Source: Cystobasidiomycetes sp. EMM_F5 (lineage: Eukaryota). Taken from it: 64,000 bases of DNA. The position numbers were made by a program, and so were the translations under genes. The stretch covers positions 62,001 to 126,000 of the forward strand of contig JBPGPT010000021.1 in assembly GCA_051047955.1 (NCBI GenBank), in the 5' to 3' direction. The notes under the pieces are model-generated. The model had not been told where the DNA came from. It saw only the letters and a list, made by a program, of their open reading frames with translations, and did not search any database. Positions 26,784 to 51,800 of this stretch are shown here, piece by piece (position 1 is the stretch's first letter; the number at the start of each line of letters is the position of its first letter).

Positions 26784-29700
26784 ATGAACCGGGTAAGTTG
26801 GTATACATGACAGACAATAACAAGGTGTCTAAGGCTTTTCGCTGCTGGGCCAGAAATCCGCCGCGAGTGCCTCTGGTCGGGCAGTCTCCAGTCGATCAGC
26901 TAAAGTGGCGAAATCCAGGGGCAGAGCGGTTGTGTCTCCAGATGACAACGACACGGTACAAACAACGCCACCGGTTTCTTCCGCTTCTTCGACTACAAAT
27001 AGTGCAATCTCTACGACGACGCCAACGACAGTAAAGGGTGCAGCCTCTAGCAGGAAGAAGCCCGGTAATGCCCGTGCGCGAAAAGATGGTGATGACACCC
27101 CTTTTGTCCTATCCATGCCGACCGTTGCAGTCACGCGTGAATCACCAGATTCACCGCCCTCAGCTTCACCCATCGCATCGAGTCAAGTAAGCAACATGGC
27201 AGGCGGCGCATCGACACTTGCTGCGCTTTCCACGAGCAAAGCACAGGTGGACACGAAAAAGTTTTATCTCACTTCGGAACCCGCATCGGCAGAAATGGGT
27301 AGGCGACAGTCTTCCACTTCCAGCATAGGCAAACGGCATCTTCCGCGTCGCGGGGAGAAGCGAAAGTACACGGAGGAGCCATCCTCTGACGAGGGCGATG
27401 ATGCTGGAACACCCAGAGGGCTGCCAAACAATGCAAAGCAAGCTGGTAAGGGAAGGTCTGCAGAACCTCCCCTAACACTGTCGCTCTCTCGAAGCTCCTC
27501 CCCTGCAGCACTTTCACTCGCTGGCAGCGAAAGCTTACATGACTATCCGCATAGCAGTCCACAAGTGGAGCGAGGGCTAGACTATGGAACTAGCGCGACA
27601 GCCAGTGCAAACGTACGCGGAAGGAATGGGAAGTCTATCAAGCGGGTAGAAGTAACGCCGCCCTCATCCACCGCAGCCGGAAAGAGAAGCAGAAGAAGAA
27701 TTGTCGAGTCTGGCAGTGATGGTACCGTTTCCCCGCCAGACACAGCAGGGCTCGATGACGACGCGCATGTCAAGGAGGAGATTGCTAGTGACTACCGGAG
27801 ATCTACTTCGGCCGCCATCATGGATCTGGAAAGTATCAAATCAAGGTCTCGCGAAAGCACTCCGGAGATCCCGCTCAGTGCACGTGGTCACGTTCAGTCT
27901 CTCGACGTAGTGAATAACAGCCTACTTCATCCCGATGCTCGCCGAGCTGCGTCAAAAGCATCGTCTCGTAACTCAACTCCTGGGCGGTCCGCTGCCGATG
28001 ACGCGGACGACATCGGCGAAGACGATGCTACATCAATAGGCAGGGCAGTTTCGGAGGCGCCATCTAATGCACCATCTATCGCAGCAACAGCCCTTTTGCT
28101 GTCTGGCATTGATGATGATGCGGATGCAGACTTGCAGAGCGGGCTTGATAGCGGCCACATGTCGATGTCCGCAGACCCTGCTGGTCCACTACGGAAAAAG
28201 CGGGGAAGACCGCCGAAGAAGAAGGGCGCAGAGATCGAGCCGGTCACCACTCGTGGACGAGCCACTTCAGCCATACCGCCTGCCACTGTCACTAGTAAGC
28301 ACGGCATTTCGATGCGATCTTCAATATGACTCATGGCATCGATTCTGATCTATGTTCCATTCCAACAGATCCGGCATCCGTAAATATAACACTTGTGAAG
28401 CAGAGTACAGCGGCTCTTAAGCTTAGAGATCGGTATGTGCCGTCCCCAGCTTAGCTAGCTGCAGACTGAAGTCTGTACCTGCTCAGTATTCAAGCCACTC
28501 TGGATTACGAGAGGCAGCTAATTCAAGACAATCAGCATCCGCTGCTCGCCAAGGCTCTGGCTAATCTGGAGATAGCGCGATCAATGCGGCTTGCCGAGCT
28601 CAAGCTCGTAAATCAGGCGCGCATGAAAGCCCGACAGCGGACCGAGGAGGCTCAGGTCAGGCAGAAATGGCTACAATGGGAAGATGCCAAAAGGGCATTG
28701 TGGATGGAGATCTGGAAGGATCTTGATAGTCGAGAACGGCGGCTCAACATCGAAGTCTGCGATTCTGAGTTATGTGAGTGGACTTGGGTCAAGACGCAGC
28801 GTCACTAGCTTATACGGTCTATTTAATAGCCGCATTACTGTGTCCGGGCGTGCAGCACGACTTGCCTCCTCCTGCCTACCCGCTTGCACGTATGCAAGTA
28901 CTAGGTGTTAACGGAACCAATGCTCAGGTTACAGAGCTGCAAAGGCACACCATAATACCATATGATCAAGCTACTGCGCAACATAGTCGGTGGTCATTGC
29001 AAGCTGAAGAAATTCAGAGTGATCTCGAGATGCTCGGACTGCGCAAGTCTCAGGCGATTACAGCGATTGACATGCTCGATCCAATCGGCTCAAGCGCAAT
29101 GCTGCCGATCGCCCACGAACAATACGATGATTCTCCTAGAGACGCGCGTCTACGTGTGCAGCCACTTCGCTCAAAAGTGAGTCTCAGCGTAGCTACCACA
29201 GATTCTGACTGACACACATTTGTGTATTAGCGCAAGCGAGGTGAAGACGACCGACCATACATACTGCAACCGCAAATCCCTATTCAACCAAGCCCAACTG
29301 GTATACCTCCAAGATTCTTATCGTCGGATCAAGTTGCATATAGACCTCCCGGAGGTCCTGTCAGACATCAGCAAGGACAGTCTGCTAATCAACCCATCGT
29401 TATTGAAGATAGTTCTCCAGCTGCCAAACAAGCCAAGCTGCCGTCATATCCACGGGATCGTGTCAGCAGATTCGCGGATGAGACGAGACCGCCGATCCAC
29501 ATGGACGAAGTATTGCAGAAGGGGCGTTATCCTCAACACCACTATGGGGATCCGGGCCATTATCATCACAGCCAGAAGCCTTCGCTCGATCAGCTTATGG
29601 CACGCGACATGGCTCCCTTTGCATATCGTGCTGGATCTCCCCCACTCCACTACGACCAGTACGGCATGCCCCTGTACTATGCTCAAGATATTCCATACCA

Positions 29701-30130
29701 TCCAGGAAACGTGTACGGACCTGGCTACTCGCTTCCAAATGAACATTACGCATATCCACATGGTCTGCCTCATCACCCAGATGCGCAGGCTCACAGCGCA
29801 ACATCCTACCCAGTACATCCGGCATATCAGCATTACTTGGCAGATCCACACTACAGAGGGCCTGGTAGCTATCCGGAAGTCCTTCCCATCGCGCCGCATC
29901 CCGGCCTTCCTACATCCGGCAAGTACAGCAAAGCAACACCTACTGCTACCCCTAGAAAAGCGGCCGATGATACGCCTCGCAAAGGCGAGGGTACTGCGGT
30001 TGCCAAGGTACAGCAGCCGGGGCAAGCGAGCCGACCACTTTCGAGTGGGCAGATGCACCTAGACGAGAGCGAACCTGACTGGCGCAGTCGGACCCGCGAT
30101 TGGCAGCGCGATGTGCAGGCTACACACTAA
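26784..30130 (+). CDS. Sds3-like coiled-coil chromatin protein with AT-hook and His/Tyr/Pro-rich C-terminus
   Basis: Exon 1 is ATG AAC CGG/GTAAGT. It is followed by a Ser-rich disordered region, AT-hook KKRGRPPKK, and a coiled coil LDYERQLIQDNQHPLLAKALANLEIARSMRL...KWLQWEDAKRAL resembling the Sds3/Dep1 domain. Confidence 0.6.
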
Positions 30131-32138: not shown

Positions 32139-33810
32139 TCAGATAGCCTTGTAGTCAAGCTTGGCTAGATTGAGATACCACACACGCTCAGCATTTGCAC
32201 ACGCAACATATTATGCGCAACGACTTACACTCGTGTTTCTTGGCTTCTTGTAATTTTCTCACTGCTTTGTTGAGATCGTCTTGGACAATGTAATCTCGCT
32301 CTTCTCTAATGGCAAACATGCCCGCTTCCGTCGCTACATTCCGCAAGTCTGGACATTGCGAGCCTCGTTAGCTTTATATGCTCGGGCTATGATCAAGACG
32401 AAATACTGACCTGCTCCATTGAAACCTTCCGAAAGCTTGACAATAGCTTCATAGTCAATCTCTCCTGATTTCCTGATTGGCCCGCAGTGTATCTTTAAGA
32501 TTTCCATCCGTGACACCTCATTCGGCAGCGGAATCTCAATCTTCCTATCGATTCTCCCCGGCCGCATAAGTGCTGGGTCGAGCGTGTCTGGACGATTCGT
32601 TGCCATGATTATCTTTGTCTTGCCGAGGTAGTCGAAACCGTCCATCTGATTGAGCAGCTCCATCAATGTCCGCTGGATTTCGCGATCTGCCGAAGTGCCT
32701 TCGCTGAACCGCCGCCCTCCGATAGCGTCAATCTCGTCCATGAAGATGATACATGGTTCGTGTTCTTTGGCGTATCCGAACATCTCCCGCACTAATCTTG
32801 CAGACTCTCCAATGTATTTGTCAACGATGGCCGATGAAACGACTGTAGGGTAAGGCCATCTTCAGCAAGGCGGCATGCAGCCGTCAAGGGTACACTCACC
32901 CTTCAGAAAGTTTGTGCCCATGGTACTAGCAACAGCTTTGGCTAAGAGCGTCTTGCCGGTACCTGGTGGACCGTATAGGAGTACACCCTTGGGGGGCTTG
33001 ATTCCCACCCGCAGAAAGAGTTCGGGGTTTTGAAGAGGTAATTCGATGACTTCTCGCAATTCTCGTATTTGCTCGCTCAACCCGCCGATTCCAGCAAAGC
33101 TGACGTTGCCTGGGTCTTCTATTGACATATTGTATACCAGCGGATCGACCTCTCTCGGCAGAACTCTACGGCATTGACATGTCGTTGAGTATAGAATCAA
33201 CATACATTGGGCCTCACCTACCTCATAATCGTCAACGTCGTCATATCGAGAGCTACTCGAGTGCCTGGTTTCAGCTTGTCGCGATTGACAGATGACCTGC
33301 ACCCGACTACATAGCGGGGTCCAGAAGATGCCTTGACAATGACTGTGATGATTGTGAGGGTCGGCGATGTGGTCTAGCGCTGCATGCAAGAAATGCAGCC
33401 TTACACCTCTCTTCGTCCAATTGCCGCGTCACCTCTCCTACAATCTGGCCAACACTCTGCAGCGCCTTGATGTCGTTTTCTGACTTTTCATAGTCTGCCT
33501 CGAAGTTGCGTATGTTGAGCCGGACTACAAGATTGTATTTGTCGCATTCGTGGAGTCGGTGCATCATCGTGCATTACAAACAAGGTCCGGTGGAATCGCG
33601 AAAAAGAACATTAGCCGTGCATCTCGTTCTGACGACGTTGCTACGCACTTCGTTTCAAGTCGTCGCCCAGCGCTTCATGTTCGTTTACTCTCTGTTTCCA
33701 TATCGATATCCACCGCGTCAGCGCCCTGACAGTACCAGGTTTGAGCAGCCGCAGCCTACCCGCTTGTACGTTGCCAGAGCTTCCGCCTTTCGCGTATCTG
33801 TATCAGCCAT
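32139..33810 (-). CDS. RPT4: 26S proteasome AAA-ATPase subunit Rpt4
   Basis: [31 protein letters not shown], Walker [63 protein letters not shown]-terminal KLDYKAI*. Confidence 0.97.
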
Positions 33811-34425
33811 ATTGCCGTGGTTGTGAAGGGCAATTGCTGGTTTGCAAGTCCGTAAATGGATCTTGATCAACTTCTCAGACGCCGCAACGGTGCAAGCCTT
33901 GACCTATGACCAAACAACACAAATCTGAAGAACTTGCGATTTATGATGAAGACACGGTCATAATTCGACGAGCAGGCTTCCCTCTGCGGCATAAGCTAAC
34001 GACCGGTTGTGAAAGCTATCCAGACCGGCCGTTAACGTGATCCGCAAACTCCGCCTTACTGGTACACAGGACAAGGCTCGCGTCGCGAACCAGATATCTA
34101 CAGTCTACGTAAACTATTTCCCCTGATGTTCGTCCGAATCCCGGATATCGCGCAAAGTCGTTGAGTCCAAAGGCTATGAACATCCCGCTCGGCCAGTTCA
34201 GTGTTTGATTATTAACGGAGGTACCCGCAATACACCCACTAGCACTGAGTAGCGTCGTGGCTTGTCAAGACTAAGAAGCTGACGGTAAGAGCATTCGGCT
34301 GATGTTTCCGCGCGATATAAGGCGAGCAGACGATATACGCAAACATCCGACAAGCGAGCCTTCACCTTTGCAATTAGCTGACCAGCATTGCTTGCGGTTT
34401 CCATGGATCATAACAGCGCATGATG

Positions 34426-34449
34426 TACGCGCTCTACGCGCTCTACGCG
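34426..34449. repeat. 9-bp tandem repeat (TACGCGCTC) x2.7
   Basis: tacgcgctc tacgcgctc tacgcg is read directly, in the divergent intergenic region between RPT4 and paralogue A. Confidence 0.7.
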
Positions 34450-35550
34450 GTGTTGCTTGCAGAACGGTTGGCCACTTCTCCGAAATCAGTCTATCAGAGC
34501 AACCGCAGAGGTGATCCCGGAGATGGCCCAAGGTCATACGGTAGGATGGAGCACGCGTAAAGCGTATGCAATCAAGGACGGGCGAAGGGAACCTTTCAGC
34601 TTCGCTCTCCTCTCTTGTCTCGGTCTGCATATCCTGCTGGACAGTATTATGCCTGAAAGTGAGTGTCGATGTAGTCGAAGTCAGGCTGCAGCTGACGTGC
34701 AGGATAAGATTGAATGCAGGGATAGGCTCCTCCTCAAGTTCCTCGCGGCGATGTCAGCTCGACCGAATCACTTCGTCAGCGAATCCTGCTCATTCCATAT
34801 TCACAAGCAACGCTGGGCGGGTTCATCGCAGCGACTCATCTTCCCGTCGGTATCCATGTCATCAAAGCTTTGTCAAAGCGCACCGTCACTACAAATTGTC
34901 CCCAAAACCGGGCGTAAAGACCAGAAACACGCTGGCTGTTTGTGCCAACTTTTGGTGGCGAAATGCGCTATCCATGTCGAACGCCTTTACAATGCACGGC
35001 TCACTCGGGAATGCGGAGAACGACCCTCTGAGATTCGCGCTCACAGCACCCTAAACCTGTAGAACAGCTGATCTCGGCGTGCTGACAGCGTCAGTCCGGA
35101 CCCTCCGTGTCCGTTAACAGGTGCGGGTACGATCGAGGTCTTCCAATCTCGCTGGAGGGCCCTTAGTGCTGGGCAGGAATTCTGCACGAATAAAAGCGGG
35201 CAAAGAAGGACATCGAGCACGACGAAGCTTAAAGCTGGCTGCCTTGCTGGCTGGCTGGCTTACTTACGAACGCAGACCTGCACCTTGGAAGAGCCTCAAC
35301 GTCGCGGCGGTGCTTTTTCGTAGACTGACTCGACTACCGACGGAGCTCGAAACGACCCTTGGCTCTGCTTCAAAAGAAACGCATCTCGACTGGGTCGCTT
35401 TTGGTAGTGAGTCCTTGATACACACACCCAAACGCGAAAACACAGTTGGAGGCGTCCGAGACGAGAGACTATTGCTCTCGCTTCCTGGCCGTGCATTCGT
35501 CCGTACCTGCCTCGCGCGTGCACCCAACGAAAAAAAGGCCTTAAATCTGA

Positions 35551-37494
35551 ATGTCAACATCAAGTTCGCCTTTTCTGACTACTGTACCTCCACCTCCAGT
35601 GCACTCTGTGTACTCGACACCGTCTGCTGCTGCATCTCAGCTCAGTCGTGCTCCTTCAAATAAGCAGCATTCGTCAGAGTGCCCGTACTTTACGTCTGCT
35701 CCCACCGAAGACGCGTCCCAAATGGACAACATGGCTCACTACGGCGGCATGCACAACCATAGTCACGACATGGATCATTCATCTGCTTCTGCTGAACACG
35801 TCCATTACAATCATGCAGGTCGCCCTCACGGCGCGTCTGCCCCTCCTTCGCTCGATGGAAACGCTCAAGAATCGGCCTCTGGCTTCCAGGCTGGCACCGT
35901 CAAGACTAGCAATAATGACATGGTCTACCTCCTCACGGGTGATGGTCAGTCTAATGCTACCGTGCCGTCGTCCTGGGTCACCGTACCTTGGTCTCAAATC
36001 CTGAAGGAACTTCAAGGCAACGAACACTTGTGCCTCGCGCTCGGCCGAGCAGTTAGCACACAACAAGGGATTCGAAACAAGCTGCTCAGGGTACTTTCTG
36101 ATGGCAGTAACACATCAAGCTCTGCCAACTCGAGCCTCGACTTCAGCGACTTCTCTCTCGCTTCTGCTCTTGACAACAGTACTGCACCCGGTAGCGAGCT
36201 CTTTGCTGGTGGCAACCAGTCTGACAACATTTGGGACTCGCCTCTCGCGACCAATACACAGCATGAACAAGTCCAGGTAAGCTGCTATATGCAGTCGCTG
36301 CTCCGCCCCGACCGTCATTCGTGTCTGACATTTTTTTGGCAGAACACCCCGCTCACCTCGTCTGCAGACGAGTCTCCAATGTCGGCCGCAAAGCCTAGCT
36401 TCTGGGCAACGACAGCATCTGTTCAACCAATGAACCTTAATGTTGCCAATCTTGCCAATCTCCCTGCTATGCCGACGCCCGCTGGCAGTGTCTTATCTCC
36501 GACTGCTATTCCCATGCTCGGCAGCTCTTTCGCCAAAGAGATCATTGCAAGCAGCGACACCATCGACCAAATGATCCTTCGTGAGCGCGAATACAATCAG
36601 GAACGCAAAGAGTACATCTGGTCTCAGCTCGATCTCATGCTATACGAGATTGACGACCCGCTTGCGCAAAATGCAATCCGGGAGGAAGGCAGTATCAAGA
36701 TGACTTTCCCAATTGGCACGATGCTGCTCTGCAAGGAGAAGGATGGCGCTATCGCCAGTCCCGCCTACACCGCAGGTAACCCTCATTCGAATGAATGGCT
36801 CAAGTGCCAGGTATGCCACCACAAATGCTCTTATCGTGCCGACACCTCCTCGCTCAAGAGACCAAAGGTAAACCTTCGTTCTTGCGTCATTGCCTCTGTA
36901 GAAGCTTATCGTTCCTTCAAACAGACCATCCGCGAACACTTCCAAAAATGCCTCTGGCTCGGCGATAATCACCCACTCAAAGTACTTTCTGCCCTTCAGC
37001 TTCGTGTTCTTGAGCGCGAGTCACAAGGCCTTCTTCCAAACCGTCGCCGTGCCCGCGGCATTCGCCCTGGCCACCATCCATCTGTCGGTGGTATCCAGCC
37101 GAGCGCTTCGCCAGCTGTCAAGTACTCCCCTTATCCCGCTGCCCGTCCACCTCCTGTCTATTCCGGAAATGTAGGCGTTCAAATAGCACCGGTCGCCCGT
37201 AGCATAACTCCTGCTTCAATGATGGGCTCCTCCATGATGGGCCGACCGGAAGGTCATCCTTTCTTCGGTATGGCACCGCTGCCCTCGATGCCAAGCATGC
37301 TTGCTCCGATGCAGATGGAGCCTGCTCAATATACAGGCAATCCGTATAGCGTTCCAATCACCCGCAATACTGTCAGTCACCTGCATATGCAAAATATGCC
37401 AAACACAAATGGCCGTCACTACAATAACGCAGGCGACTCTCCGCTCACCAATAGTATCAGCGGAGGCGAGTCGCCAGAAGCTCGAATGAGATGA
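35551..37494 (+). CDS. Unrecognised family, paralogue A (putative Cys/His zinc-binding regulator)
   Basis: 647-codon ORF with two in-frame introns (36277-36342, 36868-36924). Shares the VTVPW module, LSPTA and the ~150-aa Cys/His domain with paralogues B and C. Confidence 0.85.
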   Translation: MSTSSSPFLTTVPPPPVHSVYSTPSAAASQLSRAPSNKQHSSECPYFTSAPTEDASQMDNMAHYGGMHNHSHDMDHSSASAEHVHYNHAGRPHGASAPPSLDGNAQESASGFQAGTVKTSNNDMVYLLTGDGQSNATVPSSWVTVPWSQILKELQGNEHLCLALGRAVSTQQGIRNKLLRVLSDGSNTSSSANSSLDFSDFSLASALDNSTAPGSELFAGGNQSDNIWDSPLATNTQHEQVQVSCYMQSLLRPDRHSCLTFFWQNTPLTSSADESPMSAAKPSFWATTASVQPMNLNVANLANLPAMPTPAGSVLSPTAIPMLGSSFAKEIIASSDTIDQMILREREYNQERKEYIWSQLDLMLYEIDDPLAQNAIREEGSIKMTFPIGTMLLCKEKDGAIASPAYTAGNPHSNEWLKCQVCHHKCSYRADTSSLKRPKVNLRSCVIASVEAYRSFKQTIREHFQKCLWLGDNHPLKVLSALQLRVLERESQGLLPNRRRARGIRPGHHPSVGGIQPSASPAVKYSPYPAARPPPVYSGNVGVQIAPVARSITPASMMGSSMMGRPEGHPFFGMAPLPSMPSMLAPMQMEPAQYTGNPYSVPITRNTVSHLHMQNMPNTNGRHYNNAGDSPLTNSISGGESPEARMR

Positions 37495-38699
37495 TGTGAC
37501 ATCGTCCAACGCCTGGGACTTCCCTGCTTGTTTCTTTCTAAATCTTTTTGTTTTTTTTTTTCGGTTTCTGGTTCCGCCTGTCTTACTTCGTGCTGCAGCA
37601 CTACGATATTCATCTTCAGCCACCCTTAAAAATAGCAACGCGATCAAATACTACCAGCGCGTCTCTTGCACGTCATAACGTCTGAGTCCCCTCTCCACGC
37701 TTGTCATGTACGCCTCGTCACGCAATTATCAAACGACAAAATCCTCACCAACGAAATCTCCCACGATTTGTTCTACTCGCGGCGTCCTCCTTTACTTGTT
37801 ACCTCGTAAACGCTACAAGCAACATACCTCCAAAAAGCGTATTATAGCTACCCCTCCTCCCGCGCTCCCCCTCACAATACCACGATCCCATCTCCATAGA
37901 TAAACTGTTTGGCCGAGTGTAGTGTAGATGCTTACTGTACATGAAGTCTTTCGACTTGTGTCTTACGGTTCCTACTTGCGTTGCGTTGATCGCATAAAAG
38001 CGTTCAATTGTCATGATGGGTTGCTTCTTGCCTGGACACCGAAAGACTTTGCTTCTTCACCATGACTCGTCAGCATGTTTACACGCAACTGCTCCTGCTC
38101 GTACTCATCAGGACAGCAGTAAATCTGCCATCAACTTCCGCAACCGTCGCCGTCGTTGCTTCTGCGCTGGTCTCGCTTGACCCGGCAGCAGGCTCGTCCA
38201 AAGATAGCTCATACCTACTCTTCTTACGACGTGAATGCTGACAATGTGAACGCGCTCGCGATCCGGACTGCACTTTTGGCTCTGCGGTTGAGTCTTCTCG
38301 GCGACTCCAACAGCTCTGTGTAACATGGATGGCGCTGCAGGGTGAAACTACTGAAGTACTTACCATAAAGAGCAAGTCTCACAGGCTTACTCTGTAGTAC
38401 TGCTGATCTCTCTGACTCGCTCGACGTGTCAAACCTCGACTGACGAGCTGCCACCGCAGCGACAGATTCGCGCTCTACAGCTGCCTCGCACAACATGCAA
38501 GATCGGGGTAGGACTACTTTAGCGCTTCGCTCGCTCAACTCAACAAAGAATTCTCTTGCACGCCTTATCAGAATCCCCCAGACAAGCGAGCGGGCAGGCT
38601 TCCTGATAAAAGGCGGCCTGACTCGTCTGCTTCTTGTCTTCCTTTCCAACGCACAGTACCGTAAAGAGTGCCGCTTATATTACTGACATATAGCAAAAG

Positions 38700-40487
38700 A
38701 TGCAGCAGCTCATCAGCGACAACATCAACAGCAACAGCTTCCAGGCAGTCGTGCCTAGCCCTCCTGTTCGTACCATCTCCCATCACACTCTCGTCAATTC
38801 CCCAAACGCAAGTCTGCTATCCACACCAGCTTCGATGACTGGCTCTCTAGCCGTCGTTTCTCCAGATGCAATGCGAAGCGGAACGTCGTATGACGTTCGG
38901 AGCGATACCTCCTTCGGCGATGAAGTACAATCAGCAAATCAAACTCCTGCTCTGCCAAAGGGCAAGCTTATCGATGCCGTGTCCACGCAAGTCAACTTCA
39001 CCTTCCAACAGGGATCCGTTCAAGCGAGCAATGATAGCTCCATCTACGTGCTCTCAGAAGACGCTTCGATGCTAGTCACCGTCCCATGGCTCAGCATATT
39101 AACAGAGCTCTATCAGAACGAGAATCTCATCTCCGCCATGCTCACCAGCATGGAGAGCCAGCCAAATTTGCGCACAAAAGCGTTGCAGATCCTGAATCGC
39201 AATCAACCTGCGAACCCTCCTTTCCAGTCCATGCAGAATCCTCACTTTTCAGACTTTACCATCTCTTCGGCTATCCAATGCTCAGAGACTCCTGTGACTT
39301 ATCCACTCTTCCAATCTTCTTCGACGGTCGACTTGAGTAACAACGCTATGCCAGGCACAGCTGGTATCACCGGTTGGGACGCCGTATGTCAACAGGTACG
39401 CCCAGCTAATTCAGGTGAGGTACCGCATCATGCTGAGCCAGTGTTTCTGTCTCAGAAGACAACGTCTAGCCCGTCATCACAAGCTGCCACCTCTGGCTCT
39501 GCAAGAACTGCAGCGCTGCAGTCACCGGGAGGCAATCTGTCTCCTACCGCGCGGCCTCCCACAGCCTTCGACTTGCCTCCCATGCCCTTCCCAGACTTCT
39601 CCGGCTCCATTCAAAACGCTCCAGACCAGAGCTCAGGAGCCAACATCATCGGCGTCAGCTATCCGTCCGTCGTCACCGCAGATTTGGATAGCATCGACCC
39701 TATGATCATGGCGGAAAGACCACACAACCCAACTCAGCGCGAGTACATCTGGTCACATGCATCGTACGAGCTGTACGAAGTAGACACACCCGAAGGTCTC
39801 ATTGCACAGCAAGAAAGTGGAACCATTCGAATGGTGTTTCCTCCAGGCACTATGCTTCTCGCCCATGATACCGATGGTGCCGAGGCTAGCCCCGCATGGA
39901 CGGCCCGCCGTGCCAACATGAAAGATTCCAACGAATGGCTCAAAGCTCAGGTCTGCCACCATCTGTGCTTGCAGTACAAGGCAGGCACCCGGCGACTAAA
40001 CAGGCCAAGAACCATTCGGGATCACTTCCAGAAGGTACGCTTCGCGACATTCGAATACTACACGCAATCTGACTTGATTCATTGTATATAGTGTGTATGG
40101 TTGCCACCCAATCATCCATTGAAGGTGCTTTCGACACTCCAGCTCAAGGTACTTGATCTCCGACAGAATGGACTAATTCCCACAAAGAGCCGAACAAGGA
40201 GCATTCACATGGGATATGCTCGTCCTATAGGTGGCCTGCAGACCGGAGGACTTGGCTCAAACCTGGCATCTCCATTCGCCAGTCCTTTCATCGAGAACTC
40301 CATCACCAGTGCATCGAATTATACAATGCAATTCAGAACAAACAACCAAAGCACCTTCCCAACCCTTGCAAGTCCTCTAGTCAATGTAGCGAGCGGCCCA
40401 TCAGGGCACACTCACATCCACAAGAAGCGAAAATCGGAACATAGCGATTCACCTCTGTCGAGCCCGTATTCAGATTCTTCGGAATAA
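38700..40487 (+). CDS. Unrecognised family, paralogue B
   Basis: Introns 39396-39455 and 40035-40091. The spliced product contains LVTVPW and ...SNEWLKAQVCHHLC...RPRTIRDHFQK/CVWLPPNHPLKVL. An acceptor just before the ATG (38693) suggests an upstream exon. Confidence 0.85.
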
Positions 40488-42068
40488 GGCGTGTTCATTA
40501 TACCTGTTTCAATATACATGATGTGGGAGGATCAGATCGTCGACCTATTGTACATGCTTGATTCGATTCCATAGCTTCTCTCCACCTTGCTGTCTCATGT
40601 TTGAATTGCCCTTTGTAGAGATCCAAACTTGTTTTTGCATTGTAGCAATATGATACTGCGGCGTCCACTGCTGGAATTAGGTCGGCTCGCTTCGCTGTAG
40701 CGTTGCCAGTGGAAAAGTTTGGCCAGAGCGTCAGTACCGCTCCGCCAGCTCCGCCCTTGCCCGACTTTGGGTGTCCCGGGACGAGAGCAAAACGAGCATC
40801 AAGTGCGCGCGAATCCGAAGTACTCAATCTGCAACTCGTGCAAATACGGTCCTTGAACATGCCAGGCAGCTCATCTCACTGCATGCTGGAACTCTGGATA
40901 TCTACATTGACCCATCTGCGCGGGCTGCACCAGATTGCCAATCCAACAAAGCCCACCGGACTGATCATGACGCTCTGATATGGACTCTGTCATGGCTCAT
41001 TCATTATCTTTGAGGCGACCGGCCGCAGTATATACGAGGTGCTCGCGCCCGCTGGTTATACAGGACGCGACGTTGAGCGCGCTTGCCCGCCGGTCTGCCC
41101 GCTTCGGCGTTGTAGCAAAGCTTCACGGGGCGATGCGGTCGACACAACCCTACACCACAATGCATCACACTTTCCAACGCTCCCGTCTGACGGGTGTCTT
41201 AGAGTGACTAGCGTCGTCGGATCTCCATTCAATCCCAACGGCCAACGGCTGCTCCGAGAAGAACTCTCGAGCGGCTTTGTGCATCAGACGAGATAAGTGT
41301 TCTCTTTTGGCTCCGCGTAAAGGACTCAATTGGAGCACAAGGCTTTTCCGGTTGCGATCCACTCTGCGATTGAATGCTAACCCCGCATACTGACGTCGAA
41401 CGGAGCTTTTGTCCAAATGAACAGTCGTTATGCTCACAAAGACCCCACAGAATAGTAACTAAGGCGGTTGAAATGGATGAATGACAAGCTCGTGGCCGAG
41501 CGTGGTGGCTTTGAACAGCGGCGAAGCGAGGTGAACTGACAAGCAATTCTGACCGGGCTGCAGAGGCTAGCGTGGTAGACTTTTTCTCAGCTATCGAAAG
41601 GACACCTCTGCGACTCTTTCTACCACTCTCACCTGAGAACCCTCGTCTTGGCTGCCAAAGATCCTTTCGCCGCGGTTTGTCGACCTTCTCATCCTAGCTT
41701 TAGTGACCGCCACAAAAGCCCCACTCTTTGGCCGGTCACAACATTTGTATCAGCAAAATCACAGAATTGGCGCAGGTTGACCAGGGTTTCAGTGAGTCCG
41801 TCTTGTGACCTGTGTCACAATCGCGCTTAATGATGGTCCGTTAAGACTTTGCCTTTTGGCACCTCCAGACACCAAGGCTTGCAGATCAACCACTCTAACG
41901 GAACCTGTGAGTAGGCTGCATACAAGCGGACTGACGCACTCCTGCGTCTCGAGCGAAAGCTGACCGTTCCGTTTGCCCTACTTCTGCTCGGCAGGCCACC
42001 GAATTTCCTTTTCATCGCGCAGCTGTGCATCCCGGAGCGATCAGGAGAGCTGACCCCGCAAGCACATC

Positions 42069-45000
42069 ATGGGTTCAAATACTCAGGCCCCGCCCCCTCA
42101 TCGCCGCAATGTAAGTCCACTCTGGGTTTCCAGCTTTGTGCGCAGTTTGGGTCTGCTTGCTACGCAAACTACCCTAAAACAGCAGAGTCTGGCAATTTGA
42201 CAATCTCCGCTGACACAGGCAACGTTTCTATTACCCACATACATACCCGCCCTCTGATCCTCGTCATAATCATATCCCTCCGTACTTATCACTACAGCCT
42301 CGACATAACCCACAACAGCGTCCGGCAATAGTCATGTCTTCCAGAGCTCAGGCCAGCGGCGGGATAGACAGTGGAGTGTCATCACCAGAGACCGGTCCGA
42401 CATCCTTGACTGGCTCTCCGGCTCTATACCATGGCATACAGCGAGGATTTGGCTCTGCTGCTAGCACTACTCCTAGTAGCATCACCAGCGCTTCGACATG
42501 CTCTCAGCAACCATTCAACAGCATTCATAGTACTCATGGCCATTCTCGTACAACGTCCATATCATCCGTTGCCTCTACTTCCAATCCCATTGACTCAGCA
42601 TTCTACAGTGGTACTCCAGCTCAAAGTAACGAGCAGACCCTTTACATTCGCGTCCCATCCGCTGGCAATGAAGGCAATGCTGAAGGCCATGTTGTGCCAC
42701 TCGACGAATCTAACAAAAACCGCAATACAGAGGACTTTTGGGTAACCGTTCCCTGGCAAGCTATCGGCCATAAAATGCTCGAGCAGCCCACCCTTCTCTT
42801 GGACCTGCTCGAAAGCGTCAAGGCAACTCCAGTCATGAAGAACCGTATCTTGCGAATGCTAGCTGCCAGTTCCAACGAAGTATGCCCAGATAGCGGGTAT
42901 ATCGGGGCGCATGAGCAGGGCGACTTCAATTTACCATCCTCGCCCAACCCTATGCGAGCATCCAACATGTCACTGTTCCCTCCAATGCCAATGCCTGACG
43001 TATCAGCGTCGACCTGGAGCACGCCGGGATATCCAAACCCGAGCGAGTATCACTCCAGTGCGCCAGTAAGGGTAAAATGCACTTTGCTGTGAAGACAAGG
43101 GCTGACAATCCCGCGACCAGGCTACACCTGCACATGGCCTTGTTGGCTCAGATCAGTCATCTGCTGGCTCTCCAGGCCATACAGGAGGTCACGCCGGTGC
43201 ATGGCCTGCATTCCCTGGAGCAACGTTTGATGCCATGTCCATCTCTGTACCAAACGCAGCAAACTCAGCCCTAGGTGATATGAGCGCTCTTCTGAACGGG
43301 CAACTGTCGCCGACTGCGGCCATGTTCAACCAATTCCCTTCAGCAATTGCGGCCGCACCTGATACAATCGACCGCGGCATCTTGACGCAAGTCGAGAGCA
43401 ATACAATGGTGGAGGAGTACGTATGGTGTCCTGCTGATGCTTCTCTCTATGAGATGAGCAACCCTCGGGCCGCTCAAGCCTTGTTGGCGCCCGGCTCGAT
43501 CAGAATGACATTCCCGCCCCATACTATGATACTGGCGTGGGAGAAGGACGGCACTGCAGCAAGTCCCGCATTCAAGCCTCTGCATCCGCATTCCAATCAA
43601 TGGTTGAAGGCTCAAGTCTGTGATCACCGATGCGCATACAGAGCCGGTACAAACTCGCTGAAGCGGCCAATTACTATACGTGACCACTTCCGAAAGGTCA
43701 GTGTGACTCTCGACGGTCGCCCTGAGCTTGATCGCTGAGAGCTTGTCACATAGTGTGTCTACCTGGAAGAGAACCATCCACTCAAGGTATTGTGCTCGCT
43801 GGAACTCGCCGCTCACGAAAGAGCATCGCAGGGCTTGCTGCCAACGCGTCGTAGAACACGCGGCGGCCGTCTTGGAGCCATGAAGAGCGTGAGTACATAT
43901 GATCCATACCCATGATCTATCCCCACCTTCCTTCGTTACAAAAGTAGTAGCATTTGTGCATCCCCCTTTCTCGCCGACCTCATTCCTCTTTCGCCGTTCC
44001 CTCGATTGGTAGGATTGTTATTCTATACGAGCGTTGTGCTGAAATACAATCCTTCCCTGTCCATTCTCTTTGCGTGTGGTCCACTGTCTCCCTCCGCAGG
44101 ACTTTACGAGCTCAGCATCGTCCATGCACAATTTGCCACTGAGCAAGGTCCGTGCGCATCAAGTTGGACGAAGCTCCGTATCTTCACATGGTGGATTGAC
44201 GTCAAGTGCTGGTACTGGAGGAGAATCGGCAGACTCCGACTCGGATTACGTTCCACCTCGTTCAACTTCTGCTGCGACTAGCATGCTGTCTCTATCGGGA
44301 CTGTACGCAAACTCAAATCAGGCCGCGACTGTACCGGTCGCTCCTACCACATCTGCTGGCGGCGACGCACAGATGGAAGGTAGTACATCGAGCAATACAT
44401 TCGCCAATGACAAAGCACCTCGCTCCCTGAGGGGCATTACAAAGGTTGCTGATGCTACCGTTACACTGCCAAAGCAAGACAACAGCATTCTTCCAGGGCA
44501 TGCAAGGCGACATACAATGGCAGACACGAGGTCTTTATTTTCGAATGTGCTGCATGACTACTCAGGCCATCATGACGGCCACGACATGGTGAGCGGAGTC
44601 GTCAAAACCTGAGAGTATGAGACTCTCCTTTTACTGAGCAGATATTATATCAGGACACATTTGACAACACTCCTATCTCGCTGGCAGGTCTTCCTCTCAC
44701 TCTGGGCTCATCGGGCGCAGTATTCGGCACGTCAAGCGATACATTCAGTCAGCAGATAAGCGGTCCATTCACTGGCCATCCTGGCATTTTTGGCAGTACG
44801 GTAGGCGACACTTCTCATTTCAATAGCATCCCTTCATCCACTTTCCATCCCTTTTCCGCATCGAGAACCGTATCCCCGAACGACTTTTCTAGTCAGCCAG
44901 ATTTTGGCATGCATTCACCGGTGAATGACCTGCCGCCCCTGAGTTTGGGAGTGTTGGCAAAGTTTCATACTCCGACAATGGATCCACGCGAGATGACTCA

Positions 45001-45352
45001 AGGCCATCAAGCTGGATATGCATTCCGAGACTACTTTTCGGACTCTGCTTCGTCCGACTGCTCTGCATCGTCTTCTGCTGCTCCTTCTCAAGCTCCATCA
45101 CCTGCCACATCTCCGATCCGTATGTATGCCTCATCTCGCGAGGATGATATTCCTGTCCAGGATATGCGGGATATGACTGTCGCCAAGAATACACGTGCTC
45201 CCGGCAGCCCTGCTTACTTGATCTCTCCTACACTCCGTGCTCCCGCTCTTCCCCTCTCATTCTTACAGCAACACGACAGTGCCTACAATTCCTCTGCTAG
45301 CTTCGACACCGACGACGATGACGACCTCAAGGCTGGCTTCAATCTAAATTAG
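42069..45352 (+). CDS. Unrecognised family, paralogue C (long Ser-rich C-terminal extension)
   Basis: Inferred introns 42111-42297, 43066-43120, 43697-43753, 43889-44099 and one starting at 44589. Contains WVTVPW and ...SNQWLKAQVCDHRC...RPITIRDHFRK/CVYLEENHPLKVL. The 5' exon and tail splicing are less certain. Confidence 0.8.
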
Positions 45353-45801
45353 CCAAAAGAACGGATGCCATCTTTTGGCAGATTCCGTTACACCATAAGA
45401 AGGACGGAACACGTCCTGGCTAGACATACGGCCAAGTCGCTCTGCGCTCTCCTCAGCTTCAAGCACCAAAATTGGCACCAATGCTTCATACATCAGCGTT
45501 CTTTCATGTTTTATTATTCTCAGCTTGTAGCTCCCGTCGCTGTAGCTTTTCACTTCTTAGCTACAACTCCAGTCATCTTTGTTGAATCCGAAGCTGTGTC
45601 AGATTGAATACGAGAGTAGATATCGTTCAAGTTCCCCCTCGAGGTCTTTCCGAGAGAACAACTGCGAGCACTTTGACCGTAGTCTTACATTCTCAGCTCT
45701 TATTGCACATTTGTCGCCTGTGCTGATATCGTCCACTTTGTCCAAGTCGGACCTCTCCAAGGTCAACGGCAGTCCGACACTGCGCAAGTAACCAACAAAT
45801 C

Positions 45802-48800
45802 ATGGCGGACAGGCAAGTTGACGATGCTGCATTCACAGCAGACATGCCAGTATACATAGCAGCATGCTGACGCTGGACACGAAATATCGCATCCGTCACA
45901 CTTTCCTGCGCGTCGTCGTCTGAATGGGAACCCCCCAAAATCCGTATGCTTGGGATCAACAATGCAGACCTATCCAGTTCACGGAGCATCTCCAGGTGCG
46001 TGCAGCTCGTAGCGTCTTGGAAGAGGCCTGGCTGACATTATCATGGCTGCGTCCTTGGTGGGCAACCCCCAGCTCTCGGCAGTGGGCATCCAGCCTGCTG
46101 CCATCAGCTTCAACACGCTCACTATGGAGTCGGATCGCTTCATCTGTGTCCGGGAAGAGGTGCGCTCCCGTCGACCAATCGAATGGACTGCGATATTCTG
46201 ACGCCGTTGCCTTGCGCTTTCGAACATGGTGAATTGCAATGACAGGGCGGTCCCAAGAAGGAGGTCGTTATCGTAGACCTCGCTGATGCAAACAATATCG
46301 TACGGAGGCCCATAAGCGCAGAGTCTGCCATAATGCACCCGGCCAAGAAGATTATCGCCCTGCGAGGTGAGCGGTCACGGCATAGCTTGGTATGGTTTTA
46401 AGACGCGCTGACACCCTGCCATCTGCGTCATGCGAATCAGCTCAGCGACAATTGCAAGTCTTCGACATGTAGGTAGTCTAAGCACTCAATCTGGGCCGAC
46501 TGCTGATGATGGACCCGGCAACAGCGATGCGAAAGCCAAGGTCAAATCACATTTAATGCACGAGGTGGGTTGCTGCATACGTAGAGATGCTGGCATATGG
46601 CCTAATTTTGCCCCCCTCGCATGCAGGACGTATCATTCTGGAAATGGATATCGGAAAGCACGCTGGGGATTGTCACGGAGAGTGCAGTCTACCACTGGTC
46701 AGCGACTGGCGATGCGGCACCGGTCAAAGCATTCGACCGACATGCAAATCTTGCTGGACACCAAATCATCAATTACCGCGCATCATCTGATGAAAAGTGG
46801 CTAGTACTAGTCGGCATTGCGACAAATCCAGCGCCAGATGGCTTCAAGGTCAAGGGGTCGCTGCAATTGTACTCTAAGGAACGCTCAGTGTCGCAGCCGA
46901 TTGAAGGGCACGCAGCCGCATTCGCAAATGTCAAACTGGAAGGCTCGAACATCGAAACCAAGCTGTTCACCTTTGCAAATCGTACCGCGACTGGCGCCAA
47001 ATTGCACATTGTCGAAATTGATCATCAGGCAAATGCTCCTGTATATACCAAGAAGGCTGTCGATGTCTTTTTCCCAGCAGAAGCGACAAACGACTTTCCG
47101 GTTGCCATGCAGGTGTCGAAAAGGTGGGTATCGAAAAGTACAGAGGGCTGCTGTATCTCAAGCGCTGACGAGGGCACTGCCTCACAGGTACGGTGTCATC
47201 TACCTCGTGACAAAATACGGCTTCATTCATCTGTACGACATTGAGACTGGCGCAAACATCTACATGAATCGTATCTCTGGCGAAACTATATTCGTGACTT
47301 GCGAACACGAAGCCACCAGCGGTATCATCGGCGTCAACAGGAAAGGTCAGGTTCTCTCCGTCTCCGTCGACGACGAGACGATTATTCCATACATCCTTAA
47401 CACGCTCAACAATACCGACTTGGCCATCAAGCTCGCTTCTCGAGGCAATCTGCCTGGTGCAGACGGGCTCTACCAACAGCAATTCTCCCAGCTCTTCCAA
47501 GCAGGGCAATATTCTGATGCCGCCAAGGTCGCTGCGACGTCCCCCAGAGGCATACTACGTACTCCTCAAACAATCGATATGTTCAAGCAAGTACCCGTAC
47601 AGCCCGGTCAGATGAGTCCGATTCTACAATACTTTGGCATTCTGCTCGAGCGGGGAAAGCTCAACCGGTACGAATCAATCGAATTGTCGAAGCCTGTGCT
47701 CACTCAAGGCCGGAAGCAACTGCTCGAGAAATGGCTGAAGGAGGACAAGGTAGATCAGATGCGAGGCTCGCACTTGTGTTCCTGATATGCTAATCGTTTA
47801 CTCCACAGATCGATTGCTCTGAAGAGTTGGGTGATATCGTCCGGCAACACGATATGACTCTTGCTTTGTCCGTCTATCTTAGGGCTAGCGTACCCAACAA
47901 GGTCGTTGCGTGCTTTGCAGAGACCGGCCAATTCAGCAAGATTATCGTCTACTCCCAGCGAGTCAATTATACACCTGATTATCCTTCGCTGTTGCAACAC
48001 ATTACCCGTCTCAACCCAGAACAAGGCGCTGAATTTGCCAAGATGCTCGTGCAGAACGAGTCTGGTCCCCTCATAGATCTAGAGCGTGTCGTAGACATCT
48101 TCCAATCGCAAAACATGTATCAACAAGCAACCTCCTTCTTGCTGGAAGCGCTCAAGGACAACCAGCCTGAACAAGCTCATCTACAGACTCGTCTACTCGA
48201 GATGAATCTGGTCAATGCTCCACAAGTGGCCGATGCTATTCTCAGCAACCAGATGTTCTCGCATTACGATCGGCCGCGCATAGCCAACCTCTGCGAGAAA
48301 GCCGGCCTGCTGCAGCGGGCTCTCGAGCATTACGAAGATCTGAACGACATCAAGCGCGTTGTGGTCCATACCAATCTACTTCCAACAGACGTAAGTTACG
48401 TTGTTTCATCACTCCTTATGGACAATCTGACATGGGTGACACGCAGTGGCTCGTTGACTACTTCGGAAAGCTGACTGTAGAGAACACCCTTGAATGTTTC
48501 CGCGAGATGCTTAAAATCAACATTCGCCAAAATCTGCAAGTGGTTGTGCAAGCAGCTACCAAATACTCAGAATTGATTGGACCGGTCCGCTTAATCGAGC
48601 TGTTCGAGTCTTTCAAGACTTTCGAAGGATTGTACTACTATCTAGGATCGATTGTAAACCTGAGCACAGACTCGGAAGTTCAGTTCAAGTACATTCAGGC
48701 CGCGACGCGGACAGGCCAGATCCGCGAAGTCGAACGCATTTGTCGCGAGTCGAATCACTACAACCCCGAAAAGGTCAAGAACTTCCTCAAAGAAGCCAAA

Positions 48801-51800
48801 CTACAGGACCAGCTCCCGCTCATCATCGTTTGCGACCGCTTTGGTTTCGTACATGATCTTGTCTTGTACTTGTATCAGAACGGACTGCAAAACTTCATCG
48901 AAGTGTACGTGCAGCGTGTCAACTCCGCTCGCACCCCGCAGGTTGTTGGCGGTCTGCTCGACGTCGACTGCGATGAAACGACAATCAAGCAATTGCTCAT
49001 GTCTGTCACTGGAACCATGTCTATTGACGAGTTGGTCGACGAGGTAGAGAAGCGTAATCGACTGAAGCTCATCCTGCCATTCCTGGAAAACAAGATTGCC
49101 AATGGTCAACAAGAGCCTGCTATTTATAATGCGATTGCAAAGATCTACATCGACTCTAACAACAATCCGGAGGCATTCCTCAAGGAGAATAATGTGAGTT
49201 GAGACTTACACGAGATATTGCATCGCTTATTAAATTGTATTTTGTCTAGATATACGATCCGGCGACCGTCGGCAAGTACTGCGAGAAGCGTGATCCTTAT
49301 CTAGCATACATTGCGTATGCCAAGGGCTTCTGTGATCAGGAGCTTATCAATATTACCAACGAGAACCAGATGTATAAGCATCAGGCGCGGTATCTCGTCA
49401 AGCGACGTCAACTTGACCTCTGGTCAACGGTCCTGAACAAGGAGAATATGCATAGACGGTCACTCATCGATCAGGTCGTCGCAACGGCAGTACCAGAGTC
49501 GATCGACCCGGAGGATGTCTCAGTAACGGTCAAAGCATTCTTCGCAGCTGATTTACCAGGCGAACTTATCGAACTACTGGAAAAGATTGTGCTCGAACAG
49601 TCTGCTTTCAACGACAATGCCAACCTCAAGAAACTGTTGCTGCTGACTGCCATTCGCTCTGACAAGGGTCGTGTCATGGGCTACATCGACAAGCTGGACG
49701 GCTTTGATGTACACGAGATCGCCGGCATTGCGATTGAAAATTCGCTGTACGAGGAGGCCTTCACTCTGTTCAAAAAGCACAACATGCACCTCGAAGCGGT
49801 CAATGTGCTCGTCGAGTACATAGTTGGCATCGATAGAGCTTCTCAATACGCAAACAAAGTCAACGAACCTGCAGTCTGGTCGAGGCTTGGTAAAGCCCAA
49901 CTAGACGGCCTTCGCATCAAGGATGCTATCGGTGAATTATTCTCCGATATCTTCTGTGAATCTTGAAAGTCTGCTGACCGCGTTTCTTACAAAAGACTCC
50001 TACGTTAAAGCCAACGATGCCACGAATTACGCTGAAGTCATCGAAACTGCTGAGCGAGCGGGCAAGTATGACGACATGGTTCGATACCTGCAAATGGCAC
50101 GTAAGACCCTGCGAGAACCCAAGATCGATACCGAGCTGGTCGTAGCCTACGCCAAGACAGATCGTTTGTCCGACATGGAGGAGTTCCTCGGCATGACCAA
50201 CGTTGCAGACTTGCTGACAGCAGGAGAGAAAGTGTTTGAACAGAGCCTTTACGAAGCTGCCAGACTGCTCTTCTCGAGTATTTCAAACTGGGCTAGATTG
50301 GCAACGACCCTAATCTATCTTGGCGAGAACCAGGCTGCTGTCGATGCCGCTCGGAAAGCTGGGAACACGCAGTACGTCAGCTCGTGCCTTTGGTCATAAT
50401 ACTTCTTTCTGATGTTCGGAATATCAAAGGGTGTGGAAGCAGGTAAATGCTGCGTGCGTGGACAAGAAGGAGTTCCGCTTGGCGCAAATCTGCGGTCTCA
50501 ACCTCATCGTGCACGCAGAAGAGTTGCAGGTATGCAGATCTCGACTCGGCTGCAATGTGTGATCTGATGAGCAATCGGCTTCACAGTCGCTTGTCAAGCT
50601 GTACGAATCGAGAGGCTATTTCGAGGAGCTAATGTCGTTACTGGAAGCCGGACTCGGTCTGGAACGGGCACACATGGGCATGTTCACGGAGCTCTCCATC
50701 CTCTATGCAAAGTATGCTACACAGAAGCTCATGGAACACCTCAAGCTTTTCTGGTCACGCATTAACATACCTAAAGTCATTGCTGCAGCAGATCGAGCCC
50801 ATCTCTGGCCGGAGCTTATCTTCCTCTATGTGAAGTATGACGAATTCGACAATGCTGCACTTGCTATAATGAACTATTCTGGAGACGCGTGGGAACATAA
50901 CCAGTTCAAGGAAATCATTGTCAAGGTGGCCAACATCGAGATATACTACAAAGCACTCAGCTTCTATATCGAACAGCAACCACTATTGTTGAATGACTTG
51001 CTCACAGCACTGACTCCACGCATCGACCATTCCCGGGTTGTCCGCCTGATCATGAAGCAAGATCATCTACCCCTAGTCAAGCCATACCTCATTGCCATCA
51101 AAGGCCTCGATTTGGAGGCTGTCAATAATGCTTTCACCGATCTATTGATCGAGGAAGAGGATGCTGCGACTTTGCGCGATGCCATAGACACGAATACCAA
51201 CTTCGACGTGAATGGCTTGGCGTCGCGTCTAGAGAAGCACGAACTCCTAGATTTCCGTCGCATCGCTGCGCATCTGTATAAGAAGACTGGACGATGGGAC
51301 GACTCCATTGCACTAAGCAAAGCAGACAAGTTGTACAAAGACGCAATGGTCACCGCAGCGGAATCGCAAAGCAGGGAGCAAGCTGAAGAGCTTGTCAATT
51401 ATTTCGTGACACTTGGCAACAAGGAATGTTTCTGCGCTTCGCGTAAGTGTCGCTAAAATGCAGCAGTCTCTGACAACAGCTGACCATGCTTAAAAGTTTA
51501 TATATGCTACGATTTGCTGCGGCCGGATTATGTTTCCGAATTAACTTGGAGACATGCTCTCAACGACTTTGCAATGCCATACCGCTTGCAGGTCGAGCGG
51601 GAGCAGGTATGTAAACTTCGCCAACGTAGGCGTCTTTTGTGCTGATGTGCTGATGATTTTGTTACAGTATACTCGCATCGCCTCACTGGAGGAGCTCATA
51701 AAAAAGCTGTCTGCGAAAGATGAAAAGAAGGAGAAGGAGGAAAGCGAAGCGCCTATTTTCATGGGGACTGGGCGGTTGATGATTGGAAATGGACCAGTCA

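Follow-up and report, generated by a model that had tools for sequence, protein, structure and literature searches.

We found that three genes in a 64,000-nucleotide (nt) stretch of DNA from the basidiomycete yeast Cystobasidiomycetes sp. EMM_F5 encode members of a real, constrained and undescribed protein family with a likely zinc site, for which we infer a function below. The whole stretch, here called the window, comes from a phyllosphere isolate annotated with funannotate, according to its genome announcement (PMC12697161). The genes, called g1, g2 and g3, share the + strand and are flanked by RPT4 and the clathrin heavy-chain gene, and their sequences mark them as anciently diverged paralogues of a modular family. 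The original prediction had put three same-strand genes between RPT4 and CHC1; they are present where it placed them, and PDB and family matches confirmed both flanks. The gene models were derived solely from open frames and GT..AG sites:

35551-36276, 36343-36867 and 36925-37494, + strand: exons of the g1 coding region, 606 amino acids (aa)
38700-39395, 39456-40034 and 40092-40487, + strand: exons of the g2 coding region, 556 aa
42334-43065, 43121-43696, 43754-43888, 44100-44588 and 44654-45352, + strand: exons of the g3 coding region, 876 aa

The first exons measure 726 nt (g1), 696 nt (g2) and 732 nt (g3), and the first introns, all in phase 0, measure 66, 60 and 55 nt, respectively. The second introns (36868-36924 in g1, 40035-40091 in g2 and 43697-43753 in g3) are each 57 nt long and likewise in phase 0. 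Parts of the three proteins follow one another in the same order: a low-complexity start, a (W/L)VTVPW module (WVTVPW in g1 and g3, LVTVPW in g2), the phase-0 intron, LSPTA, the core domain, an Arg-rich patch and a Ser/Pro/Ala-rich tail, the linkers having the same Ser/Pro/Ala bias. The elements up to the core are placed as follows:

35884-36105, + strand: g1 N-terminal module, F..G....SN...Y......WVTVPW plus helices
36277-36342, + strand: g1 intron 1, phase 0, 66 nt, GTAAGC..CAG, spliced in the NCBI model
36493-36507, + strand: g1 LSPTA
36520-37080, + strand: g1 core domain, comprising an acidic beta-rich half, the C-x3-C...H-x3-C finger, the NHPLKVL helix and the RRRAR patch, with intron 2 inside
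38997-39206, + strand: g2 N-terminal module (LVTVPW)
39537-39551, + strand: g2 LSPTA
39651-40220, + strand: g2 core domain, with the intron 40035-40091 inside
42601-42870, + strand: g3 N-terminal module (WVTVPW)
43304-43318, + strand: g3 LSPTA
43325-43888, + strand: g3 core domain, with the intron 43697-43753 inside

The core domain spans about 150 aa, and pairwise identity over its exon-2 part is 53%, 53% and 48% (116-124 codons); over the whole of exon 1 identity is only 26-28%, and outside the modules the linkers of g1-g3 are not alignable. Most of the common architecture that had been proposed therefore stood, namely the modules, the phase-0 first intron, LSPTA, the core of about 150 aa, the basic patch and the unalignable linkers; the shared Met-rich tail did not, as such a tail occurs in g1 only (9% Met).

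A further linker motif, LPxMPxP, lies at 36472-36492 in g1, from 39513 in g2 (as DLPPMPFP) and at 42976-42996 in g3. All three window genes carry it and so, among 25 further sequences of the family, do 7 that belong to several subfamilies (including P0005, P0008, P0009, P0019, P0034 and P0035), many of these sequences being fragments without the linker. Like LSPTA, it is probably a docking or phosphorylation motif.

No Pfam-A family reached its gathering cut-off with 7 window pieces or 29 family rows. We searched a profile of the three cores against 1.84 billion (1.84e9) cluster representatives at E ≤0.001, and obtained 31 matches, 23 of them at E ≤1e-10 and 9 at ≤1e-30. Twenty-six are family members, g1 and g2 themselves and 24 others that are mostly exon-sized fragments of metagenome or read-archive assemblies, and 5 are spurious. 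E-values were 1e-61 to 1e-62 for g1 and g2 and down to 1e-48 for relatives in other organisms; because a three-sequence profile retrieves g1, g2 and relatives at such values, the kinship is not due to chance. A profile search of this kind had been proposed by the original prediction. Word-indexed protein searches with whole g1 and with the g1 core region found g1 itself only, and a search with alignment A6 among proteins of 589-2000 aa gave no match; a scan of metagenome contigs added 2 short loci, L001 and L002, without useful gene context. The g3 protein was not found in the protein collections searched.

An exact-sequence name look-up covered 20 clusters, in which the organisms named are EMM_F5, a Cyphobasidiales metagenome-assembled genome (CAD6563675.1, here P0035) and Atractiella rhizophila (KAH8919862.1, here P0031). 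Every named member is labelled "hypothetical protein", in keeping with the earlier view that the family was an unrecognised one, and all are from Pucciniomycotina; hhalign placed the Atractiella protein in the family with 97.7% probability. With named members from two Cystobasidiomycetes and Atractiella only, the suspected restriction of the family to one lineage is borne out: within the reach of this search it appears confined to Pucciniomycotina and older than the class Cystobasidiomycetes, although a three-sequence profile may miss more distant kin. Text search found no description of the family in the literature, where an unnamed family is hardly findable by words. MedA and Clp1, fungal regulators without a Pfam family, were dropped because no protein from Ascomycota or Agaricomycotina was retrieved by the profile; with the sensitivity of three sequences, this excludes them only weakly.

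The five spurious matches (P0021, P0023, P0027, P0029 and P0030) are long repeat proteins with many short matching stretches, as read from the full length of P0021, P0023 and P0027 and from 120-aa excerpts of P0029 and P0030. In all of these except P0023, bacterial-looking repeats resemble the acidic core half, with 4-8 matching stretches per protein (e.g., ...IWSATD.DW...LRVYGPDG.TLVASD.DGG...). Since the fold searches described below gave no beta-sandwich match, these matches were taken as compositional and not as kinship.

The duplications that produced g1, g2 and g3 are old. Nonsynonymous divergence (dN) between the copies is 0.38-0.63, and synonymous divergence (dS) was not computable by NG86, the synonymous sites being saturated; third positions are 27-41% identical, while about 50% of the amino acids are kept. 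A tree was built from 26 rows and 86 columns, omitting L001 (near-identical to P0011), P0017 (of the P0035 cluster), P0024 (finger only), P0032-P0034 and the five spurious matches. Its pairs are g2 plus P0003, an environmental sequence (support 100/99), and g3 plus P0013 (92/85); the sequence nearest to g1, by identity only, is P0006 (72%). Deeper branching is left open by this tree (13 of its 23 inner branches).

The second intron sorts by subfamily. In g1 it interrupts RPK|T, 8 codons upstream of the site HF(Q/R)K|C used in g2 and g3; the g1-like P0007 has the g1 site (after RPK), and locus L002 has the g2/g3 site (after HF(Q/R)K). This offset could be due to intron sliding or to independent gain. 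At the DNA level the only repeat among g1-g3 is a single 37-nt stretch (encoding SNEWLKAQVCH) at 68-81% identity, and there are no inverted repeats in 34000-46500, so that recent duplication and gene conversion can be set aside, and no transposon signature is seen. In view of the synonymous saturation, the amino acids kept, the closer relatives of each copy elsewhere and the sorting of the second intron, we take the duplications to be old and the copies to have been kept by selection, which agrees with the original prediction.

The core carries the pattern C-x3-C-x(14-18)-H-x3-C, kept in every family sequence that covers the stretch. It is contiguous in all six sequences without an intron break (spliced g1, g2 and g3, P0024, P0031 and P0035), and in P0022, P0026 and locus L002, which are read through the intron, the last Cys follows the intron. 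The reading CHHKC...REHFQKC in g1 becomes CDHRC...RDHFRKC in g3 and CLPNC...RAHLATC in Atractiella; other His residues within C-x3-C vary (CHHKC, CDHRC, CLPNC, CGIGC). The putative ligands and the basic clusters are found at:

36814-36951, + strand: g1 putative zinc site, with Cys codons 36814-36816 and 36826-36828, His codon 36937-36939 and last Cys codon 36949-36951 as presumed ligands
37042-37065, + strand: g1 RRRAR patch
39954-40094, + strand: g2 putative zinc ligands
40185-40199, + strand: g2 basic patch KSRTR
40422-40433, + strand: g2 tail KKRK cluster
43619-43756, + strand: g3 putative zinc ligands
43847-43870, + strand: g3 basic patch RRRTRGGR

In the predicted structure of the P0035 core, helix 93-98 is followed by a loop that holds the Cys pair, and helix 117-126 contains His123 and has Cys127 at its end; in this model the Cys/His layout is a knuckle-plus-helix, as in classical fingers. 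Zinc binding by the core, already suspected from the three genes, is therefore likely. The two halves of the core differ in charge: the finger, the NHPLKVL helix and the Arg patch together carry a net +9 to +12 (isoelectric point (pI) 10.2-11.0), and the preceding beta-rich half a net -4 to -7 (pI 4.6-5.1). The Arg-rich clusters RRRAR, KSRTR and RRRTRGGR sit after the helix, and g2 adds KKRK in its tail; these clusters and KKRK look like nuclear import signals.

We modelled the full-length Cyphobasidiales homologue P0035 with AlphaFold2 (29 alignment rows). Only residues 40-118 and 205-360 are ordered: the former as three strands followed by three helices, with block predicted local distance difference test (pLDDT) scores of 77-90, and the latter with block pLDDT 87-98. 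The VTVPW stretch, which had been thought helical, is in this model a beta-strand leading into the three helices. The P0035 core modelled alone (27 rows) reached pLDDT 91.9 and a predicted template modelling (pTM) score of 0.85, the five models ranging over pLDDT 86.8-91.9. The AlphaFold and Foldseek check that the original prediction had proposed, run here on P0035, thus gave a confident core, and Foldseek against PDB returned nothing at E ≤0.001 for either the full-length or the core model. For the core, an exhaustive VIA comparison with 48,161 chains peaked at Z 2.3, with only 11 chains at Z of at least 2; the wide VIA search with the full-length model peaked at Z 4.2. In a second VIA look, none of 427 chains reached Z 2. 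According to VIA's note, models without a Foldseek match usually reach Z 7-8, which puts the core unusually far from known folds. These searches used whole-domain models and might overlook the fold of a finger, for instance one of BED type, that makes up 45 of 165 aa. The core is thus a confidently predicted fold without a solved neighbour, and with the three conserved modules this recommends the family for structure determination and as a candidate new entry among protein domains.

It is very improbable that the genes are mis-predicted or decaying and that their conserved Cys and His play no part in metal binding. The models do come from frames and splice sites alone, g3 is missing from the protein collections searched, and the NCBI models differ from ours in the introns kept and in the g1 start. 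Set against this are frames open over 556-876 codons with canonical splice sites, about 50% amino-acid identity in spite of saturated synonymous sites, relatives with the same modules in other organisms, and the confident fold prediction. In the NCBI annotation g1 is hypothetical protein EMMF5_004372 (P0001) and g2 is EMMF5_004373 (P0036, 576 aa). Each of these models keeps one in-frame intron, and g1 is started 55 codons later; otherwise they agree with ours. P0001 keeps g1 intron 2, which adds 19 residues within the finger, and P0036 keeps g2 intron 1. The g1 frame is open across intron 1 because that intron lies in frame; being in frame and without stops, the g1 introns 36277-36342 and 36868-36924 and the g2 intron 39396-39455 can be kept silently by public models. 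For g3 the least certain part is exons 4-5 (44100-44588 and 44654-45352), which were placed by reading frame and splice sites only. Without splicing of the 211-nt intron, the frame stops 8 codons on. Upstream of g3, the segment 42069-42218 holds a mini-ORF of 14 codons, starting with the ATG at 42069, and after it GTAAGT...CTGAC...CAG; the mini-ORF does not share the frame of the g3 open reading frame (ORF). This looks like an intron of the 5' untranslated region with an upstream ORF, or the true start of g3 may be other than 42334.

From these properties we infer that the family binds zinc and nucleic acid, is located in the nucleus and acts in regulation. Our leading reading, which is tentative, is that its members are nuclear zinc-binding modular regulators whose basic finger half would touch nucleic acid, with DNA the likeliest target. 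A basic finger half (pI 10.2-11.0) and disordered tails would suit both DNA binding and control of transcription, and make the two plausible. Each protein consists of a small N-terminal alpha/beta module, a disordered linker (with LPxMPxP and LSPTA), the compact core of about 150 aa and a disordered tail. The core would bind a single zinc ion, with C-x3-C providing ligands from a loop and H-x3-C from the end of the helix that follows. Finger, next helix and Arg-rich patch would then form a strongly basic surface, serving nuclear entry and contact with nucleic acid, most likely DNA. Recruitment of partners would fall to the acidic beta-rich half, together with the N-terminal module and the disordered regions. 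As regulators of gene expression, g1, g2 and g3 would have become sub-functionalised.

Several points weigh against this reading. CCHC fingers are often protein binders rather than DNA binders, and a lone finger seldom gives sequence-specific DNA binding. We found neither a sequence match to a DNA-binding family nor a structural match to a known fold. The protein that was folded is the homologue P0035, whose identity to the g1 core is 51% over one exon part and 72% over the other; the AlphaFold2 alignments were shallow (27-29 rows), the ligands were located by residue count along the P0035 model and not by inter-ligand distances, and ESMFold2 on the g2 core was uncertain (pLDDT <50 in at least one run).

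It is possible, though we hold it doubtful, that the core is a new DNA-binding domain with its own fold, which would define a transcription-factor family confined to Pucciniomycotina, the three paralogues forming a small regulatory set, possibly with shared targets. If the family does bind DNA, it adds a lineage-specific class of transcription factors; to our knowledge hardly any study has dealt with regulators in Pucciniomycotina yeasts, whose classes comprise, among others, fungi of the phyllosphere and fungi associated with lichens. The claim is a modest one, as lineage-restricted orphan families are common in fungi and the g1-g3 family has no tie to a phenotype here.

The CCHC module may instead bind proteins, like the BIR-like modules of ZC3HC1 and Pml39 (nuclear-basket anchors) or like oligomerising CCHC fingers; the family would then comprise scaffolds or adaptors, in the nucleus or elsewhere, with docking motifs in the disordered regions. 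We rate this, the main rival of our reading, as somewhat unlikely. The sole Pfam signal, also the best Pfam score, points toward it: zf-C3HC, the N-terminal domain of NuBaID, on g1 (E 0.0047, 17.4 bits against a cut-off of 22.2; 1 of 29 members). So does a partial fit to the BIR-like half-signature of NuBaID, G-[WYF]-X(6,24)-C-X(2,3)-C-X(17,82)-H-X(3)-C-X-[WYFML], as published (PMC10162418). Its portion C-X(2,3)-C-X(17,82)-H-X(3)-C-X-[WYFML] compares with C-x3-C-x17-H-x3-C-L-W in g1, with x17 and an ending C-V-Y in g3, with x18 and an ending C-V-W in g2, and with x14 and C-K-L in Atractiella. The family thus resembles zf-C3HC/NuBaID proteins in its CCHC ligands, in using the permitted C-x3-C variant, in H-x3-C-x-[WY] in g1-g3 and in the weak Pfam match. 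LPxMPxP and LSPTA are kept within otherwise unalignable linkers, as docking or phosphorylation motifs would be, and the best sequence match of profile A2 in PDB was a CCHC finger, that of BCL11B, at a non-significant E of 0.75 (chance level). The N-terminal finger of BCL11A/B has a CCHC pattern like that of the family, but is a short self-association module of a multi-finger protein.

The differences from NuBaID are several. Beyond the sub-cut-off score, there is one C-x3-C...H-x3-C per family protein, and NuBaID is defined by two BIR-like modules. G-[WYF] is absent 6-24 residues upstream of the Cys pair, N-E-W standing instead five residues before the first Cys. The fold searches showed no BIR-like or Pml39 structure, with no BIR or Pml39 chain among the 11 chains at Z of at least 2 (VIA, whole-domain model). 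The finger half is also very basic, which is more in keeping with a contact to nucleic acid than with a surface that binds proteins. A BIR domain proper was rejected, as the family spacing of C-x3-C and H-x3-C departs from the pattern C-X(2)-C-X(16)-H-X(6)-C given in the same publication (PMC10162418). Should the module bind proteins, the CCHC interaction modules would gain a stand-alone relative in this family.

The finger might also descend from the BED type, which occurs in hAT transposases and in proteins domesticated from them; the DNA-binding module would then have been domesticated and embedded in a new domain. This descent we judge distinctly unlikely. It was suggested by ESM Atlas, where the rank-1 cluster for the g2 core is named "BED zinc finger domain-containing protein" (score 0.88, 172/256 features); the same cluster is at rank 6 for g1 (0.82). 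Atlas scores below 0.9, as all of those here are, serve as leads only, and zf-BED is carried by just 10% of the cluster members. BED fingers have Cys spacing C-x2-C. By eye, the near-invariant Trp (SNEW/SNQW) before the family's Cys pair, which is followed by Tyr, Phe or His, and the G-T-x-S-L-K-R before the His resemble the BED consensus. A BED domain has 50-60 aa, two conserved aromatic positions and a Cys/His pattern, according to one account (PMC9296551). The family is like BED (PF02892) in having an aromatic residue before the Cys pair, a His-x3-Cys/His pair in the following helix, a basic context and a single copy. It is unlike BED in its C-x3-C, in the 14-18 residues leading to the His, in the fusion of the finger into a 150-aa domain and in lacking a transposase. 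None of the 29 members matched zf-BED at E ≤1, a search in which HMMER filters drop most matches above about 0.1; g1-g3 have no transposase domain, and there are no inverted repeats around them. A hAT or other transposase was rejected on the same grounds, no transposase family being matched.

That the basic finger half binds RNA, or that the proteins act outside gene regulation (e.g., in cytoplasmic signalling or in a structural role), seems to us quite improbable. Basic, largely disordered proteins with a zinc knuckle are typical of RNA-binding factors too, and the results here do not tell DNA from RNA; set against this, no RNA-binding family or fold was matched, and the Arg-rich clusters and KKRK resemble nuclear import signals.

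Other known modules were compared. A classical C2H2 finger follows C-x2-4-C-x12-H-x3-5-H, and was rejected given the family's last ligand Cys, its spacer of 14-18 residues and the lack of a Pfam match. The DNA-binding domain of GAGA factor is similar in having a Cys knuckle followed by a ligand-bearing helix, a single finger and an adjoining Arg-rich stretch. The family departs from GAGA-type fingers in that its last ligand is Cys and not His, its spacer exceeds 12 residues, its basic patch lies beyond another long helix, and there is no C2H2 match. The C-terminal region of KatG catalase-peroxidase, matched by profile A6 in PDB at E 0.38-0.64, was taken as chance.

The flanking genes, which are outside the family, are:

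32334-33428, - strand: AAA exons of RPT4 (26S proteasome subunit 10B), upstream flank
46606-51456, + strand: clathrin heavy chain (propeller, linker and CHCR repeats), downstream flank

The upstream AAA gene matched RPT4/subunit 10B best in PDB (E 1e-77 to 1e-80, with Cdc48-type ATPases at 1e-56), and the family scan places the start of the clathrin heavy-chain domains at about 46800. We scanned 23 hand-picked ORFs of the window, each of at least 175 aa, and found matches to cyclophilin, RhoGEF/CNH, formin, RPT4, clathrin, PH/BAR and PFK2. No homeodomain or STE3 pheromone-receptor family was matched among these 23, and a basidiomycete mating-type locus was rejected. A developmental or self/non-self role had been entertained for the three genes; with housekeeping neighbours and no such family among the scanned ORFs, the locus lends it no support. 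Nothing here favoured the hetero-oligomerisation that had also been suggested.

Two long open frames upstream of RPT4, at 26833-28329 (+) and 29231-30130 (+), have no Pfam match. One is Ser-rich with a C-terminal KKRGRPPKKK (AT-hook-like) and the other is Pro/His/Tyr-rich; these may be further disordered nuclear proteins. GC skew of the + strand over 36001-46000 is -0.14 to -0.20 per 2 kilobases (in 4 of 5 bins) and elsewhere is about +/-0.07. The negative tract coincides with g1-g3, and we think that it reflects their Ser/Pro/Ala/Thr-rich coding strands. Within g1, the segment 36471-36968 is matched at 99% or more by three short contigs from two public DNA runs, one of them labelled phyllosphere metagenome, so the same or a very close strain occurs in other samples.

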